A stretch of DNA of 19,974 nucleotides, taken from contig JBHLNT010000069.1 in assembly GCA_048941265.1 (NCBI GenBank), positions 1-19,974 of the forward strand, given 5' to 3'. Below the pieces are notes generated by a model. It worked only from the letters and a program-made list of their open reading frames with translations. It ran no database searches and had not been told where the DNA came from. This document shows positions 14,157-18,618 of this stretch, in pieces. The position numbers and the translations under genes are program-made. Source of the DNA: Promethearchaeota archaeon. Lineage in GTDB: Archaea > Asgardarchaeota > Lokiarchaeia > Sigyniarchaeales > SOKP01. Position 1 is the stretch's first letter. Every line of letters starts with the position of its first letter.

Positions 14157-14534
14157 CTACGACCAAGCCAGTTTATTGACTAAAATTGACCATTCTAATA
14201 AAATCAAACTTGTTTCGGCATCTGTATGAATTAGAAGATAATCTCCTTCTTTTGTGATTGAACCGGCAACATTACCTTTCCCTCCAGCTATATTTTTCGC
14301 AGCTAATTGGATATCATCATTTTTTAAGATCGCAAATCTAGAGTTTTGATAGGTGAGAGAGGGTTCTTTTTCTTTCCAGGCTTTAAGAATAGATTTACCC
14401 TCTGCTTGAGATAATTCCGCCGCATTTCCAGATTTAAAAATGATTTCTCCTTTATCATTTATAAGATATACATCGGTAACTCCTTCATATTCGTTTAAAT
14501 CGTTTACTACACGATTAAATTTATCTTGATCCAT
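14157..14534 (-). CDS. Profilin-like protein (Asgard profilin; profilin/roadblock/longin-like fold)
   Basis: 125 aa: N-terminal helix, VYLINDKGEII hairpin, then SLTYQNSRFAILKNDDIQLAAKNIAGGKGNV, which resembles (from memory) the Loki profilin strands S(L/I).IQG.KY.IVENT.ER.I.TN..GKG; C-terminal helix. Confidence 0.68.
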   Translation of the reverse strand: MDQDKFNRVVNDLNEYEGVTDVYLINDKGEIIFKSGNAAELSQAEGKSILKAWKEKEPSLTYQNSRFAILKNDDIQLAAKNIAGGKGNVAGSITKEGDYLLIHTDAETSLILLEWSILVNKLAWS

Positions 14535-15508: not shown

Positions 15509-15611
15509 TGAGCCCGGGGAGGATCTCGTTGTGCTATGATGTCGAACACAATATCGAACTCCCGACCTATGCGGTGTAAGCGCATCGTCATAACCACTAG
15601 ACCACGGGCTC
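15509..15611 (-). tRNA. tRNA-Val(TAC) with a 30-nt intron in the T-loop (59/60; intron 15523-15552)
   Basis: Minus strand: GAGCCCG TG GTCTAGTGGTTATGAC G ATGCG CT-TAC-AC CGCAT AGGTC GGGAG TTCGAT[ATTGTGTTCGACATCATAGCACAACGAGAT]C CTCCC CGGGCTC A. Removing the intron gives a standard 73-nt tRNA; junctions form a BHB (central helix TTCG/CGAG, bulges ATA and ATC). CCA not encoded. Confidence 0.93.
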
Positions 15612-15643
15612 TTACTTAAAGGGAAATATTCTTTCTAATAAAA

Positions 15644-15747
15644 CGCAAGCGGTGGGATTCGAACCCACGGATCCGTTCGGACACCGGATTAGCAATCCGG
15701 CGCTTTAGGCACGTTCATAACGCTCTACCAGGCTAAGCGACGCTTGC
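15644..15747 (-). tRNA. tRNA-Ser(GCT) with a 20-nt intron in the D-arm (about 22/23; intron ~15705-15724)
   Basis: Minus strand: GCAAGCG TC GCTTAGCCTGGTAG[AGCGTTATGAACGTGCCTAA]AGC G CCGGA TT-GCT-AA TCCGG, long variable arm TGTCCGAACGGATC, GTGGG TTCGAAT CCCAC CGCTTGC G. Relaxed BHB-like junction. Long variable arm and G73 fit Ser. Confidence 0.9.
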
Positions 15748-15871
15748 AGATTTTTAAAAAAGGCTACTTACCTTATATTTTGAATATAACAAATGAAAAT
15801 TTTAATACTTTTTCATAAGTTTTTATGGATAAAATATAAAAGAAAAAGAAATGACCAACTTTCAAAATAAT

Positions 15872-16357
15872 TCATTCTGAAATTATCTCAAAAACCATCT
15901 TTTCGATGATCGGTTTCTTAGTATAGCGTTTATCATAATACCAGCCGACTAAATGTGCTTTCTGATCCCTTTCAGGCACGGGAGGAATTACTATGATCAT
16001 CACACCATTAGAGAGATATTTTAAAATGCGCTTATCGATCCCATGGAGCTTTTCATTTCCAGAGGGATGACTGTGCCATTGCCACACTATATCTGGAAAA
16101 GGTGGCTCTTGCTTAAATTTGCGCATATTATAGATTTTAGATTTCTTATATCGCATCCAACTTCTTGGTTTGACATGTGCCTTCGTCTTTCTAAGGTCAG
16201 GATTCATAATAAAGTTATTTACTATTCCAAAATTCTCTTTACGCTCGGCAAATAGCCAACCATGAATAATATAGGGAATCTCTTCTTTCGCTTTTTCTGT
16301 AATCTCTTTAAATATCCTTTCTGGGATGAGATAACGAAAATCCTTTGCTGAACTCAT
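15872..16357 (-). CDS. JAB/MPN (Mov34) domain protein with an atypical JAMM motif
   Basis: IVWQWHSHPSGNEKLHGID fits HxH-x7-(S)-x2-D with S replaced by H; N-terminal helix followed by PYIIHGWLF (cf. PxExxGxL); MIIVI strand after the motif. Confidence 0.72.
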   Translation of the reverse strand: MSSAKDFRYLIPERIFKEITEKAKEEIPYIIHGWLFAERKENFGIVNNFIMNPDLRKTKAHVKPRSWMRYKKSKIYNMRKFKQEPPFPDIVWQWHSHPSGNEKLHGIDKRILKYLSNGVMIIVIPPVPERDQKAHLVGWYYDKRYTKKPIIEKMVFEIISE

Positions 16358-16589: not shown

Positions 16590-16691
16590 GCAGCTGTAGC
16601 CTAGTTGGTAAGACGCTGGCCTTGAGTGTTTTTTATAACCACGACAGCCAGTGCGCGTTAGCGCTCGGGGGTTCGAGTCCCTCCAGCTGCG
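16590..16691 (+). tRNA. tRNA-Ser(TGA) with a 19-nt canonical intron (37/38; intron 16627-16645)
   Basis: GCAGCTG TA GCCTAGTTGGTAAGAC G CTGGC CT-TGA-G[TGTTTTTTATAACCACGAC]A GCCAG, variable arm TGCGCGTTAGCGCTC, GGGGG TTCGAGT CCCTC CAGCTGC G. BHB-like junction with one mismatch in the central helix. Confidence 0.9.
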
Positions 16692-16726
16692 TTTTTTAAA
16701 AGAAAATTCTCACGCAACGAAAATAT

Positions 16727-16830
16727 GGGCTATTGGCGCAGTCAGGTAGCGCAACCGGCTCTTAACCGGCAGGTCGGGGGTTCGATACTCCCATTCGAAA
16801 AGAAGGGACGCGAAATTCCCTCATAGCCCG
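16727..16830 (+). tRNA. tRNA-Lys(CTT) with a 30-nt intron in the T-loop (59/60; intron 16787-16816)
   Basis: GGGCTAT TG GCGCAGTCAGGTAGCGC A ACCGG CT-CTT-AA CCGGC AGGTC GGGGG TTCGAT[ACTCCCATTCGAAAAGAAGGGACGCGAAAT]T CCCTC ATAGCCC G. BHB: central helix TTCG/CGAA, bulges ATA and ATT. Confidence 0.93.
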
Positions 16831-17065: not shown

Positions 17066-17965
17066 ATGGCAGACGATATTGAAATTAAAAATGGAAAACT
17101 ATTCGGAGGTTGGCGGGCACCACAAAATCTTCTTAGAGCCAGTACTACATCTATTCATGATGATGGTGTAGCCAAAAGTGTTGGTATGCGTGGTGGTACG
17201 ATACAAGGAACTATTCATTTAAGCATGTTCGCACCTTTAGGACAGAAATTATTTGGTGACCGTTGGTTTGAGCAGGGGACTCTTAGCATGTATTACACGT
17301 TTGCAACAGTCGATAGAGAAGAAGTAAGAGCGATTATTGAATTAGACCCCGGAATAACTGAGGAGATGCTACCCATTGCAACAAACGATGTGCAATTTAA
17401 AGCATGGGCTGAATTAAAAGATGGGAAACAAATAATGACTGGAACTATATCAATAGGTTCCCCCAAAGAACCCTCATATTTACAAGCTGCAGAACTAAAA
17501 AATAGTAAGCCCGATGATTTACGTATATTAAAAGGAATTAAAGTCGGGGATGAGCTTCCCTCTAAAGAGATTTTAATTTCCCAAAAATCTGCTAATATTG
17601 GATTAAAGAGGATCACGGACCAATTGGAGTATTATAAAGAAAAATCTCCCTGGGGAAATACGATAATTTATCCTACAGCTATGTTTGAAGTCATGGCTTT
17701 TGGTTTCGAGCAAACAAGTTTTCAAGAATTCAAAGCCGTTCCGTTCTATGGTGCTACCGAACTAAGAAATATAAATGGACCAGCATTCATCGGTGTTCCT
17801 TATATTGCTAAAGGGAAATTCGTTTGTGTTGGAGCATCTAGTAAGACAGAGTATTTTTGGCTTGATTCTACATTAGAAGAAAAAGAAACAGGAAAGTTAG
17901 TCGCGTCAATGCGGCACTTGAATCGTTTTATGAAAGCAGGATCCCCACTTTATAAAAATCAATAA
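17066..17965 (+). CDS. Conserved hypothetical protein, probable double hot-dog fold (MaoC-like acyl-CoA dehydratase/hydratase superfamily)
   Basis: N-terminal SIHDDGVAKSVGMRGGTIQG resembles the MaoC hydratase motif (IH.D...A...G..G.I.HG); second half has SPWG..I.YP, YGATELRNINGP...G and hot-dog-like strands; AAAGGTGA Shine-Dalgarno upstream. Confidence 0.55.
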   Translation: MADDIEIKNGKLFGGWRAPQNLLRASTTSIHDDGVAKSVGMRGGTIQGTIHLSMFAPLGQKLFGDRWFEQGTLSMYYTFATVDREEVRAIIELDPGITEEMLPIATNDVQFKAWAELKDGKQIMTGTISIGSPKEPSYLQAAELKNSKPDDLRILKGIKVGDELPSKEILISQKSANIGLKRITDQLEYYKEKSPWGNTIIYPTAMFEVMAFGFEQTSFQEFKAVPFYGATELRNINGPAFIGVPYIAKGKFVCVGASSKTEYFWLDSTLEEKETGKLVASMRHLNRFMKAGSPLYKNQ

Positions 17966-18054: not shown

Positions 18055-18618
18055 TTAGTACCTCAACCGTTCTTTGCCTATTGTAGAATGACCACCATGA
18101 CCAGGAAATATTTTGAACTCATCCGTAATTTTCGGATAATTTAATATTTTTCTAATGCTAACCATTAAATCATTATAATTATCTAGTTGCCTAGGGATTC
18201 TGCCACGCAAGAGAGTATCTCCAGTAAAGATCAGCTTGTTTTTATAATCTATCAGCATTATGTCATTTATAGTGTGACCTGGTGTTTCAATTACATGAAG
18301 ATGCTCTTCTCCTATCTCAATTACATCATCTTCTCTGATAAATTTCATGTTTTCAACATTTATTTTTTTCCCAAAATTCTTGATCAATAAGGGAATATTA
18401 TAATAATCCATAATATCAAAGGCGCATTGGATATGATCATGGTGTGCATGTGTACCTATTAAATAAACCGGTTTATATCCTTCTCTATTAATAAAGGTTT
18501 TAACATCGTTTGAATCAATCCCAGGATCAATAATGCCTACTTCTTTTGTATTTTCATCCCCGAAAAGATAACAATTCGTTCTGAATATCCCACTTACTAT
18601 CAACCGTTTTAAAATAAT
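18055..18618 (-). CDS. MBL-fold metallo-hydrolase (glyoxalase II-like)
   Basis: TNCY, IIDPG, THAHHDH, TPGHT, FTGDTL, FPGHG, STIGKER: the full metal-binding motif set. The ORF track starts at TTG 18603, but an in-frame ATT at 18618 lies 6 nt after GGTGA. Confidence 0.9.
   Translation of the reverse strand: MILKRLIVSGIFRTNCYLFGDENTKEVGIIDPGIDSNDVKTFINREGYKPVYLIGTHAHHDHIQCAFDIMDYYNIPLLIKNFGKKINVENMKFIREDDVIEIGEEHLHVIETPGHTINDIMLIDYKNKLIFTGDTLLRGRIPRQLDNYNDLMVSIRKILNYPKITDEFKIFPGHGGHSTIGKERLRY

Follow-up and report, generated by a model that had tools for sequence, protein, structure and literature searches.

Background

JAMM/MPN+ metalloisopeptidases are recognised by the signature E ... H-x-H-x7-S-x2-D. 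In the MPN-minus scaffolds the zinc ligands are lost and the catalytic Glu is absent, and some of these proteins belong to RNA machines. A JAB/MPN domain receives a deubiquitinase-like annotation almost automatically, and for Asgard genomes these annotations enter the debate on a eukaryote-like ubiquitin-proteasome system. A different role has been proposed for part of the fold family: in passages of Iyer et al. 2011 (PMC3239186) the case is made that certain JAB clades have nucleic acids as their targets and that a single strand can be accommodated in the JAB groove. In the field of 7-deazaguanine modification, some products, such as dCDG in an archaeal virus, are still without an enzyme according to passages of 10.1101/2023.04.13.536721.

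The DNA analysed here, referred to as the window, is the whole stretch of 19,974 nucleotides from a Promethearchaeota archaeon. It encodes a basic JAB/MPN protein that keeps the zinc-ligand positions of the JAMM enzymes and carries a hydrophobic residue at the position of their catalytic Glu.

The reading frame and its fold

The gene at 15872-16357 on the minus strand was confirmed as a genuine open reading frame, whose product of 161 amino acids folds as an MPN/JAB domain and belongs to a Glu-less "H-x-x-P" clade, as assigned from the frame itself, an AF2 model, Foldseek and 144 homologues. The AF2 model had a mean pLDDT of 89.6 and its best Foldseek matches in the PDB were Rpn11, CSN5, Rpn8, eIF3h and BRCC36 (E ~1e-8, TM 0.55-0.71), with a probability of 1.00 for Rpn11 and CSN5. 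The matches, with E values ranging from 1e-8 to 1e-6, also included the Caldiarchaeum Rpn11 homologue (CsRpn11, PDB 6fno) and the MPN-minus scaffolds Rpn8, CSN6 and eIF3f/h. Since the window protein scored only 17.2 bits against Pfam Prok-JAB, below the gathering cut-off of 25, it is the AlphaFold model and the Foldseek matches that carry the fold assignment. At E <= 1, Prok-JAB was matched by 12 of 16 clade members, with a best E value of 1.1e-8. A PDB sequence search with the family profile returned chance-level matches only (E ~0.5), and NCBIfam gave nothing meaningful for the window protein (E 0.17). A prediction of the zinc-bound homodimer scored 0.00 (mark 0.42), which speaks neither for nor against a dimer. 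Full-length genome matches were open frames of 146-206 amino acids. The protein is a new variant of the known JAB/MPN fold family.

As originally described, the gene is the sole reading frame between two tRNA pairs, apart from a 70-amino-acid antisense frame inside the JAB gene itself. Its co-oriented placement ahead of tRNA-Ser(GCT) was also correct, and the distance from the stop codon, taken by reading the sequence, is 123 nt.

Active-site residues

Residue conservation was evaluated in two alignments, one of 33 close homologues and one of 16 clade members with identities down to 18 %. The segment H95-D108 (16034-16075, minus strand; H-S-H-P-S-G-N-E-K-L-H-G-I-D) contains the zinc-ligand triad H95/H97/D108, and H95, H97, P98 and D108 were invariant in 33/33 and 16/16 sequences, confirming that the ligands are kept; a metal is predicted to bind at these three residues. 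When hhalign was run against a canonical JAMM of this genome, H105 fell on the column of the JAMM Ser, in line with the proposed replacement of Ser by His. This position is His in 31 of the 33 homologues and T, N, K or D among distant clade members.

The position of the catalytic Glu is occupied by I30 (16268-16270, minus strand), three residues before G33 in P28-Y-I30-I-H32-G33, as had been noted. It was located from the alignments, with the register set by eye on the motif E-I-F-G-Y-L-I-G of the same-genome canonical JAMM and on the beta-strand position in the model. The residue was I, V or M in 33/33 homologues and acidic in 0/16 sequences of the wider clade. Other acidic residues were considered as an obligatory replacement of the Glu and discarded: E25/E26, E38 and E41, whose conservation does not extend to the sister clade, and E102/103, which is frequent, yet not invariant.

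The original prediction was that two extra histidines, H32 and H105, may lie near the metal. This was not borne out in that form, as H32 is His in only 26/33 homologues and position 105 varies in the wider family. The invariant additional histidine is H61, which had not been singled out. It opens the clade-defining H-x-x-P motif, H61-V-K-P64 (16166-16177, minus strand), which, going by the modelled secondary structure, falls in the loop that connects strand 3 to helix 2, where Rpn11 and CSN5 have Ins-1. Both H61 and P64 were invariant in 33/33 and 16/16 sequences, down to 18 % identity, which makes H61 as conserved as the zinc ligands, and the window motif aligns with H-F-K-P of the sister clade. 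Judging from the alignments, the clade has lost the JAMM catalytic Glu in favour of a hydrophobic residue and gained the invariant H61, which would lie close to the metal site.

These residues bear on the possibility that the protein is still a metallo-(iso)peptidase, in which H61, or else the acid often present at 102/103, would activate the zinc-bound water and the substrate would be an order-specific protein or peptide conjugate. The zinc triad is invariant, and loss of JAMM activity usually accompanies ligand loss; the nearest solved folds, Rpn11 and CSN5, are active JAMM enzymes, most clade members have the Prok-JAB matches reported above, and an acid at 102/103, though not invariant, is common. 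We nevertheless consider a peptidase unlikely, as both non-ligand JAMM catalytic residues are altered: every member has I, V or M instead of the Glu, and the Ser is replaced by His, T, N or K. Moreover, genes of a conjugation system are missing from all the contexts examined: no Ub-like, E1-like or E2-like gene was found near the JAB gene among the neighbours in the window or at 80 syntenic, 12 sister-family and 31 sister-clade loci. The genome also already carries at least 8 other JAB/MPN genes; two of these were inspected, and the catalytic Glu is present in the one that adjoins an E1-like gene.

Clade members carry the JGI label "proteasome lid subunit RPN8/RPN11". As two catalytic JAMM residues are absent and a Ub-system context is lacking, the protein should not count toward an Asgard Ub-proteasome system. 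Literature searches on Lokiarchaeota/Asgard JAB, MPN and JAMM proteins and on 7-deazaguanine/DpdA returned no title or abstract on this clade, supplementary gene tables being outside their scope, and the words MPN, JAB, JAMM and deubiquitin are absent from a 2026 preprint on Asgard chromatin.

Basic charge, constraint and distribution

The window protein has a pI of 9.78 and a net charge of +12, close to the family median pI of 9.75 (112 sequences). The charge is dense in the segment R56-K82 (16112-16192, minus strand), defined by composition, alignment and model, which spans the H-x-x-P loop and helix 2. This segment, RKTKAHVKPRSWMRYKKSKIYNMRKFK, contains 12 K/R per 27 residues, exactly as first noted, and the AF2 model shows a helix at 67-83. 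In the 33-homologue alignment R69, K74, R79, K80 and K82 were invariant and K71 and K72 nearly so, while the basic helix 2 is not kept in the sister clade.

The gene was detected in 137/153 genomes of one Asgard order, where it is near-universal and mostly present as one full-length match per genome, and in 0/246 other Asgard genomes searched. A pattern search in viral contigs gave 41 matches with no relative among them. Three single-contig genomes of the order carry the gene, which should therefore be open to experiment. Over 30 syntenic loci the median identity to the window proteins was 83.0 % for the JAB protein, 85.7 % for the proteasome alpha subunit, 80.9 % for SBDS and 62.5 % for DUF2110. 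Conservation is thus about equal to that of the proteasome alpha subunit, placing the JAB protein among the most constrained lineage-specific proteins of its order.

Subunits that make many contacts typically show conservation at this level. Together with the near-universal presence in the order, mostly as a single full-length match, it would suit a non-catalytic MPN scaffold, in which H61 serves as a fourth ligand of a structural His3Asp zinc and the protein forms a rigid, basic part of some large and conserved complex associated with the ribosome, chromatin, the proteasome or the exosome. MPN domains are often scaffolds, as in Rpn8, CSN6 and eIF3f/h, all of them Foldseek matches of the window protein, and a further zinc ligand from the Ins-1 region has a precedent in CSN5, where Ins-1 Glu104 binds zinc in the auto-inhibited state. 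In the family of the window protein the genes for proteasome alpha, SBDS and the exosome are also only a few kb away; however, the synteny with the proteasome and exosome genes is absent in 12/12 loci examined from sister families, and no conserved protein-coding partner was found outside the window's family. As the known MPN-minus scaffolds are without zinc ligands, whereas the ligands are invariant here, and no partner was identified, a purely structural role seems rather improbable.

The tRNA neighbourhood

The JAB gene is flanked by tRNA-Lys(CTT) and tRNA-Ser(TGA) on one side and by tRNA-Ser(GCT) and tRNA-Val(TAC) on the other. All four tRNAs are real but difficult to detect: ARAGORN with its default parameters found 0 tRNAs in the window, while Rfam reported two over threshold and one just under, and the identities were assigned by intron-allowing ARAGORN combined with intron-less orthologues. 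The tRNA-Ser(GCT) gene (15643-15748, minus strand) has an intron between the D-arm and the anticodon stem and was miscalled by ARAGORN with introns allowed; it was identified from intron-less Ser(gct) orthologues and from the anticodon, read by eye. The tRNA-Val(TAC) gene (15510-15611, minus strand), with an insertion in the T-arm, scored 28.5 bits in Rfam against a cut-off of 29 and has Val(tac) orthologues. On the other side, tRNA-Ser(TGA) (16590-16691, plus strand; 45.5 bits) is divergent from the JAB gene, has an anticodon-loop intron and corresponds to intron-less Ser(tga) orthologues. Finally, tRNA-Lys(CTT) (16727-16829, plus strand; Lys(ctt) orthologues) scored 37.7 bits over model positions 6-65, the Rfam match reaching 16732-16794 only, and its 3' acceptor strand seems, by eye, to lie ~30 nt beyond.

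The JAB-tRNA neighbourhood is kept within the window's own family. A divergent tRNA-Ser(TGA) was found less than 1 kb upstream in 68/75 loci and a co-oriented tRNA-Ser(GCT) downstream in 39/74 loci within 1 kb and 58/74 within 2.5 kb; the two nearest tRNAs are both serine acceptors. A co-oriented tRNA-Ser(GCT) 110-170 nt downstream was also retained in one sister family (3/12 sister-family loci). Beyond this the neighbourhood is absent. Searches with Rfam, ARAGORN and a T-arm scan, which recovers 2/4 of the window's own tRNAs, gave no tRNA flanks in 9/12 loci of the three sister families, three of these nine being on single-contig genomes, and no tRNA was detected within 2.5 kb at 31 loci of the sister clade.

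Two intergenic elements lie between the JAB gene and tRNA-Ser(GCT). A T-rich tract just 3' of the stop codon (15832-15853, minus strand), present in 17/17 aligned loci, is a candidate archaeal terminator, and an AT-rich element ~25-70 nt upstream of the tRNA (15771-15814, minus strand), the best conserved block of the 17-locus intergenic alignment, is a candidate tRNA promoter. Taken at face value, the tract and the promoter-like element argue against co-transcription of the JAB gene with tRNA-Ser(GCT).

The idea that the JAB protein binds or processes the adjoining pre-tRNAs and is co-transcribed with tRNA-Ser(GCT), for which the family-level frequencies, the retention at 3/12 sister-family loci and the serine identity of both neighbours speak, is very unlikely. 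The 80 syntenic loci are close kin (77-97 % protein identity), so that the linkage may be inherited and not selected, and the flanks are missing from 9/12 sister-family loci and from the sister clade. The putative terminator and separate promoter-like element and the variability of H32 weaken the link further.

Nearest relatives and 7-deazaguanine genes

The nearest relatives of the window family were found in Aenigmatarchaeota- and Nitrososphaeria-labelled contigs and in unnamed metagenome contigs. Although this sister clade is only ~26 % identical, hhalign related it to the window family with 99.6 % probability (E 4.6e-24, 138 columns), as compared with 25 % over 43 columns for a canonical JAMM. 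The two share full-length homology, the invariant H-x-x-P and H-x-H-P ... D motifs and the missing Glu, and thus form a single H-x-x-P JAB clade. Longer or fused forms of the sister-clade protein were not found at E <= 1e-6, which is weak evidence. One 294-amino-acid protein, P0177, showed weak sub-threshold wHTH matches ahead of its JAB part and is at most a lead.

In the sister clade a DpdA-like or DUF6884 gene occurs within 4 kb of the JAB gene in 28/31 loci, and in 21 of the 31 it is the gene immediately upstream, in the same orientation. Among the neighbours, DpdA was recognised with 343 and 278 bits (cut-off 200), alongside DUF6884, QueT and MazG. This operon link suggests that the sister-clade JAB may be an unrecognised component of 7-deazaguanine nucleic-acid modification.

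The genes next to the window JAB are unrelated to a Dpd-type cluster. In the window genome, which is 91 % complete, TgtA, an ArcS-like gene and a RaSEA start were present; TgtA and the ArcS-like gene were its only two TGT-family matches, and neither DpdA nor DUF6884 was found in it. The notion of the JAB protein standing in for RaSEA in archaeosine synthesis was dropped, because the ArcS-like gene is here followed by the RaSEA start.

Proposed function

We propose, with a probability of roughly 45 %, that the window protein is a nucleic-acid-directed zinc JAB of putative substrate and chemistry. Zinc would be held by H95, H97 and D108, H61 would replace the lost Glu as general base or fourth ligand, and the basic helix 2 together with a basic C-terminal patch would grip the nucleic acid. 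The protein would then act on or bind RNA or DNA and not Ub-like conjugates. The fold, the residue pattern, the charge, the conservation, the distribution and the gene contexts are direct results, whereas metal binding, the nucleic-acid substrate, the role of H61 and any catalysis are inferred. Given the DpdA/DUF6884 operons of the nearest relatives, the likeliest substrate class would be a modified base of the 7-deazaguanine type in a polynucleotide; as TgtA, ArcS and RaSEA are present and DpdA is absent, that polynucleotide would be tRNA in the window genome. The original prediction of a non-proteolytic JAB acting on nucleic acid thus gains support from the Glu-less clade, the missing Ub/E1 linkage and the DpdA/DUF6884-operonic relatives, while its pre-tRNA part is weak.

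Several points speak against a nucleic-acid role. The sister clade is only ~26 % identical, the function may have shifted once the Lokiarchaeal branch was outside the Dpd context, and the window genome has neither DpdA nor DUF6884. Binding to acidic proteins or membranes would suit the basic charge as well, and the basic helix 2 is not kept in the sister clade. A JAB adjoining DpdA could equally be a protease regulating that system, since defence islands often contain JABs, as PADLOC JAB matches show. The lack of fused longer forms weighs little.

A more specific form of the nucleic-acid proposal, which we regard as decidedly doubtful, is that the H-x-x-P JABs are a new family of zinc amidohydrolases tailoring the 7-substituent of installed 7-deazaguanine bases. 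The reaction would be hydrolysis of an amide or amidine C-N bond, the closest chemistry to that of a JAB isopeptidase, for instance from dADG to dCDG or from archaeosine to the amide. In contigs of the Aenigmatarchaeota and Nitrososphaeria type the protein might supply the missing last step of DNA-marking operons of the DpdA/DpdC type, and in the Lokiarchaeal branch it would have been taken over for tRNA, which carries archaeosine made by TgtA, ArcS and RaSEA. If true, it would be a near-universal, order-specific enzyme of tRNA modification or demodification.

Comparison with known systems

Compared with the JAMM/MPN+ isopeptidases (Rpn11, CSN5, AMSH, BRCC36 and CsRpn11), the window protein has the same fold and the same positions of the H-x-H ... 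D triad, but it is without the catalytic Glu (I/V/M) and has His in place of the Ser. It adds the invariant His-x-x-Pro in the Ins-1 loop and a pI of 9.8, lacks Ub-like, E1-like and E2-like neighbours and falls below the Pfam cut-offs. The MPN-minus scaffolds (Rpn8, CSN6, eIF3f/h and the Jab1/MPN domain of Prp8) also have the same fold, whereas the window protein keeps H95, H97 and D108 and has no identified PCI or MPN partner.

The RadC-type JABs and the nucleotidyltransferase-linked archaeal JAB clade are likewise argued from gene context, in passages of PMC3239186, to have a nucleic-acid or nucleotide role. In contrast to the RadC type, the clade shows no HhH, primase or helicase fusions, 0/16 members matched Pfam RadC at E <= 1, and the sister-clade context is DpdA/DUF6884, none of which occurs in Lokiarchaea. 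As for the 7-deazaguanine DNA modification by DpdA/DpdB/DpdC, the absence of DpdA and DUF6884 from its genome means that the window protein does not belong to a Dpd system. Passages of PMC10164549 on the Dpd system describe no JAB, while the words 7-deazaguanine, DpdA and JAB occur together in three papers. In the sister clade the JAB gene follows immediately after DpdA or DpdA-DUF6884 genes, with QueT and MazG nearby.

Fold and distribution of the JAB-fold protein

Database searches with the 161-residue JAB-fold ORF (15872-16357, minus strand) returned 144 homologues at E <= 0.001, which have their N-terminus, length and sequence in common with it. The 120 homologues listed of these 144 were 55-100% identical to the window protein, and the matches listed were labelled, where named, either as hypothetical proteins of Promethearchaeota/Lokiarchaeota MAGs or, by JGI, as 'proteasome lid subunit RPN8/RPN11'. 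Pfam detected Prok-JAB below threshold only (E 0.0049, 17.2 bits versus 25) and NCBIfam gave no useful match. An AlphaFold2 model calculated from A1, an alignment of 33 close homologues, was confident (mean pLDDT 89.6, pTM 0.84), and its comparison with the PDB by Foldseek retrieved Rpn11, CSN5, Rpn8, CSN6, eIF3h, BRCC36 and a Caldiarchaeum Rpn11 homologue, with E-values from 1.6e-8 to about 1e-6 and TM scores of 0.5-0.7. A profile search of the PDB sequences with the window family gave no match. As modelled, the protein has an MPN/JAB fold, and its sequence is distant from all solved members.

The open frames at full-length genome matches measured 146-206 aa, indicating that the family is a stand-alone protein. 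Since Pfam models detected at least eight additional JAB/MPN genes in the window genome, the window protein is an additional, divergent paralogue, distinct from the ubiquitin-type JAMM of the cell. It is a new JAB/MPN variant.

Searched with the family profile, 1.84 billion representative proteins yielded 14 matches in all at E <= 0.001. In 400 genomes drawn from the phylum, the protein occurred in 120/134, 1/1, 13/14 and 3/4 genomes of f1, f2, f3 and f4 respectively, the four families of a single order (137/153 in total, the window genome left out), and in 0/246 genomes of all other families. Some genomes of the order giving no match are incomplete, but five are 92-99% complete. Most genomes hold one full-length match. 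The submitter titles of several carrier genomes (among loci L002-L081) read Thor-, Hod-, Hermod- or Odinarchaeota, in disagreement with the genome search, which placed all carriers in one order and none in other families.

Active-site residues and basic charge

Across the 33 sequences of A1, which share 57-95% identity with the window protein, residues H95, H97, P98 and D108 are invariant. The position corresponding to the catalytic Glu of canonical JAMMs, three residues ahead of G33, is I, V or M in 33/33 sequences, confirming the loss of Glu noted in the original prediction. Hhalign paired W-H-S-H-P-S-G-N-E-K-L-H-G-I-D with W-H-S-H-P-G-F-G-P-F-L-S-S-T-D in a canonical JAMM of the window genome; that JAMM has its Glu (E-I-F-G-Y-L-I-G) and is encoded beside an E1-like gene. 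From this pairing H105, a His in 31/33 sequences, does stand at the JAMM Ser position. The residue calls were all right except H32, which is His in 26/33 sequences (the remainder being N, K, R, S, S, S and A) and is thus a feature of the lineage rather than a constant element of the site. With the Glu replaced throughout, a JAMM that is still proteolytic appears unlikely.

In A2, comprising 16 sequences down to 18% identity and including the most distant relatives, the complete set of invariant columns is H61, P64, H95, H97, P98, D108 and L112; H61 had not been singled out originally, yet it belongs to this set. In the AlphaFold2 model H61 lies on the loop connecting strand 3 to helix 2, where it would be part of the predicted metal site. 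A non-catalytic scaffold holding a closed His3Asp zinc is a further, likewise unlikely reading of the protein.

The window protein has a pI of 9.78 and a net charge of +12, and the family median pI is 9.75 (112 members). The predicted basic segment indeed holds 12 K/R per 27 residues, and the basic positions invariant in A1 include R8, R39, R69, K74, R79, K80, K82, K143 and K148. Median identities were evaluated over the 30 loci holding all six neighbours at near-full length, using the window protein of each family as reference, and amounted to 83.0% for the JAB protein, 85.7% for proteasome alpha, 80.9% for SBDS, 67.0% for the HisKA-receiver protein, 62.5% for DUF2110 and 61.2% for the profilin-like protein. 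The constraint on the JAB protein is strong for a lineage-specific protein with no assigned function.

Gene neighbourhood and tRNA genes

The window gene order is Rrp42, Rrp41, Rrp4, SBDS, proteasome alpha, the profilin-like ORF, DUF2110, tRNA-Val(TAC), tRNA-Ser(GCT) and the JAB gene, followed by tRNA-Ser(TGA), tRNA-Lys(CTT), a 299-aa protein, a metallo-beta-lactamase-fold protein and a HisKA-receiver protein. The first tRNA pair occupies 15510-15748 (minus strand) and the second 16590-16829 (plus strand). All four tRNAs carry insertions, located in the T-arm of tRNA-Val(TAC), between the D-arm and the anticodon stem of tRNA-Ser(GCT) (15643-15748, minus strand), before the 3' acceptor strand of tRNA-Lys(CTT) (about 30 nt) and in the anticodon loop of tRNA-Ser(TGA) (16590-16691, plus strand), the last being the only normal intron of the four. 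ARAGORN at default settings recovered 0/4 of them and Rfam at the gathering score 2/4. The two tRNAs closest to the JAB gene, Ser(TGA) on its upstream side and Ser(GCT) on its downstream side, both accept serine; this was noticed post hoc and may be due to chance or to a tRNA-cluster relic.

Synteny was analyzed at 80 loci from species-representative genomes, whose JAB protein is 77-97% identical, and was strong, with DUF2110 present in 69/80 loci, the HisKA-receiver gene in 64/80 and the profilin-like gene in 62/80. The latter, a 125-aa ORF (14157-14534, minus strand; Pfam Profilin below threshold, E 0.0079) kept beside DUF2110 and proteasome alpha in these 62 loci, probably encodes an Asgard profilin. 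The 299-aa ORF (17066-17965, plus strand; no Pfam family) and the metallo-beta-lactamase-fold ORF (18055-18603, minus strand), which separate the HisKA-receiver gene from the tRNA pair, look recently inserted, as they were found in 0/80 and 1/80 loci respectively.

A divergent tRNA-Ser(TGA) was found <1 kb upstream in 68/75 loci with sufficient flank, and a co-oriented tRNA-Ser(GCT) downstream within 1 kb in 39/74 and within 2.5 kb in 58/74; both were within 1 kb in 36/69. Because the 80 loci are close kin, these counts do not demonstrate that the linkage is selected. None of the window's protein neighbours recurs in 12 loci from three sister families of the order (JAB protein 48-59% identical). 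A tRNA lies near the gene in three of these loci, always a co-oriented tRNA-Ser(GCT) 110-170 nt downstream, detected by Rfam and ARAGORN at L114 and L120 and by BLAST and by eye at L115; a T-arm scan, which recovers 2/4 of the window tRNAs, agreed. The conserved tRNA neighbourhood holds among close kin but not in the other 9/12 sister-family loci, three of them single-contig genomes, which have no tRNA near the gene. The JAB-tRNA-Ser(GCT) adjacency appears to be an ancestral but dispensable trait of the order.

Alignment of the region from the JAB stop codon to tRNA-Ser(GCT) in 17 loci revealed a T-rich tract immediately 3' of the stop, a putative terminator, and an AT-rich block roughly 44 nt long (15771-15814, minus strand), 25-70 nt before the tRNA, which is far better conserved than the remaining intergenic region and is probably the tRNA promoter. 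These two elements make co-transcription of the JAB gene and the tRNA unlikely. The block is longer than a TATA/BRE pair. The original prediction of a nucleic-acid JAB was partly supported in its general form, but a JAB specific to the neighbouring pre-tRNAs is a weak proposal and very improbable.

A sister clade in DpdA/DUF6884 operons

The most distant profile matches, proteins P0126, P0127, P0130, P0132 and P0134, share H-F-K-P and the H-T-H-P ... D motif and have no Glu (I-I-C-G there). Their sister-clade alignment, A3, matched A1 in hhalign with a probability of 99.6% (E 4.6e-24, 138 columns). Those members that carry a name derive from MAGs of Aenigmatarchaeota and Nitrososphaeria, and the ESM Atlas holds a 194-aa JAB cluster from Thermoplasmatota. 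Scanning metagenome contigs with A3 gave 45 loci; 31 were retained (L138-L167, L172) and 14 dropped (L168-L171, L173-L182), ten for ORFs bearing the canonical Glu motif or starting past it and four for partial or weak matches.

A DpdA-like and/or DUF6884 gene lies within 4 kb of the JAB gene in 28/31 retained loci, the other three being contigs of 1.4-1.7 kb. In 21/31 such a gene immediately precedes the JAB gene, in the same orientation and no more than 600 bp away, with gaps mostly of 9-54 bp. At none of the 31 loci did ARAGORN with introns find a tRNA within 2.5 kb. A handful of neighbours was scored against Pfam and NCBIfam and the others were classed via BLAST to these; NCBIfam DpdA scored 342.9 and 278.1 bits (cut-off 200), Pfam detected TGT, DUF6884, QueT, MazG and an HxlR-type wHTH, and a HerA-type ATPase and a nucleotidyltransferase were also present. 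The archaeal islands combine these genes with two or three DpdA paralogues and DpdA-DUF6884 fusions, and carry a Glu-less JAB directly 3' of the DpdA/DUF6884 gene, as at L147 (4267-6417). In several loci a wHTH gene stands immediately 5' of the JAB gene. In P0177, a longer clade member of 294 aa, weak wHTH matches precede the JAB (HTH_5 E 8e-4, under the cut-off), which may reflect either a wHTH-JAB fusion or a merged gene call.

Judged from gene order, the sister JAB is a predicted component of 7-deazaguanine clusters. As defence-system JAB models match clade members, it could also be a regulatory protease of a Dpd-like island, and an identity to the window branch of only about 26% weighs against carrying the nucleic-acid reading over. 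The context is informative and apparently unreported, although supplementary tables may list the family as an Asgard orthologous group or a Dpd-linked gene.

In the window genome (91% complete) the TGT family is represented by two genes only: TgtA (460 bits, cut-off 350) and an ArcS-like gene, which scores 311 bits (under the cut-off of 440) and is followed by a RaSEA start. DUF6884 is absent, and the Lokiarchaeal JAB branch therefore works without DpdA. Archaeosine-bearing tRNA would be the sole predictable polynucleotide with a 7-deazaguanine in this genome. DpdC probably belongs to the YaaA/DUF328 family. DpdA is described as inserting preQ0 into DNA and DpdC as converting preQ0 to the amide ADG (PMC10164549), and DUF6884 is, per the Pfam authors, akin to the DNA-binding protein YaaA (PMC11701544). 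The occurrence of dCDG in an archaeal virus encoding only DpdA and ArcS was called 'puzzling' by its authors (10.1101/2023.04.13.536721). A family of 7-deazaguanine side-chain amidohydrolases, which in the sister clade would finish DNA marks and in Lokiarchaea would act on tRNA, is quite unlikely.

Proposed function and comparison with known JAB proteins

We tentatively favour, with a probability of about 0.45, a zinc-binding JAB in which H61 would substitute for the lost Glu, while the conserved basic helix 2 and a C-terminal patch would grip nucleic acid, the protein thus acting on or binding RNA or DNA instead of Ub-like conjugates. This nucleic-acid reading has precedent in Iyer et al. 2011 (PMC3239186), who deduced from context that some JAB clades work on nucleic acids and who describe the JAB groove as suited to a single strand. 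The loop that carries H61 in the window protein takes the place of Ins-1 in Rpn11 and CSN5.
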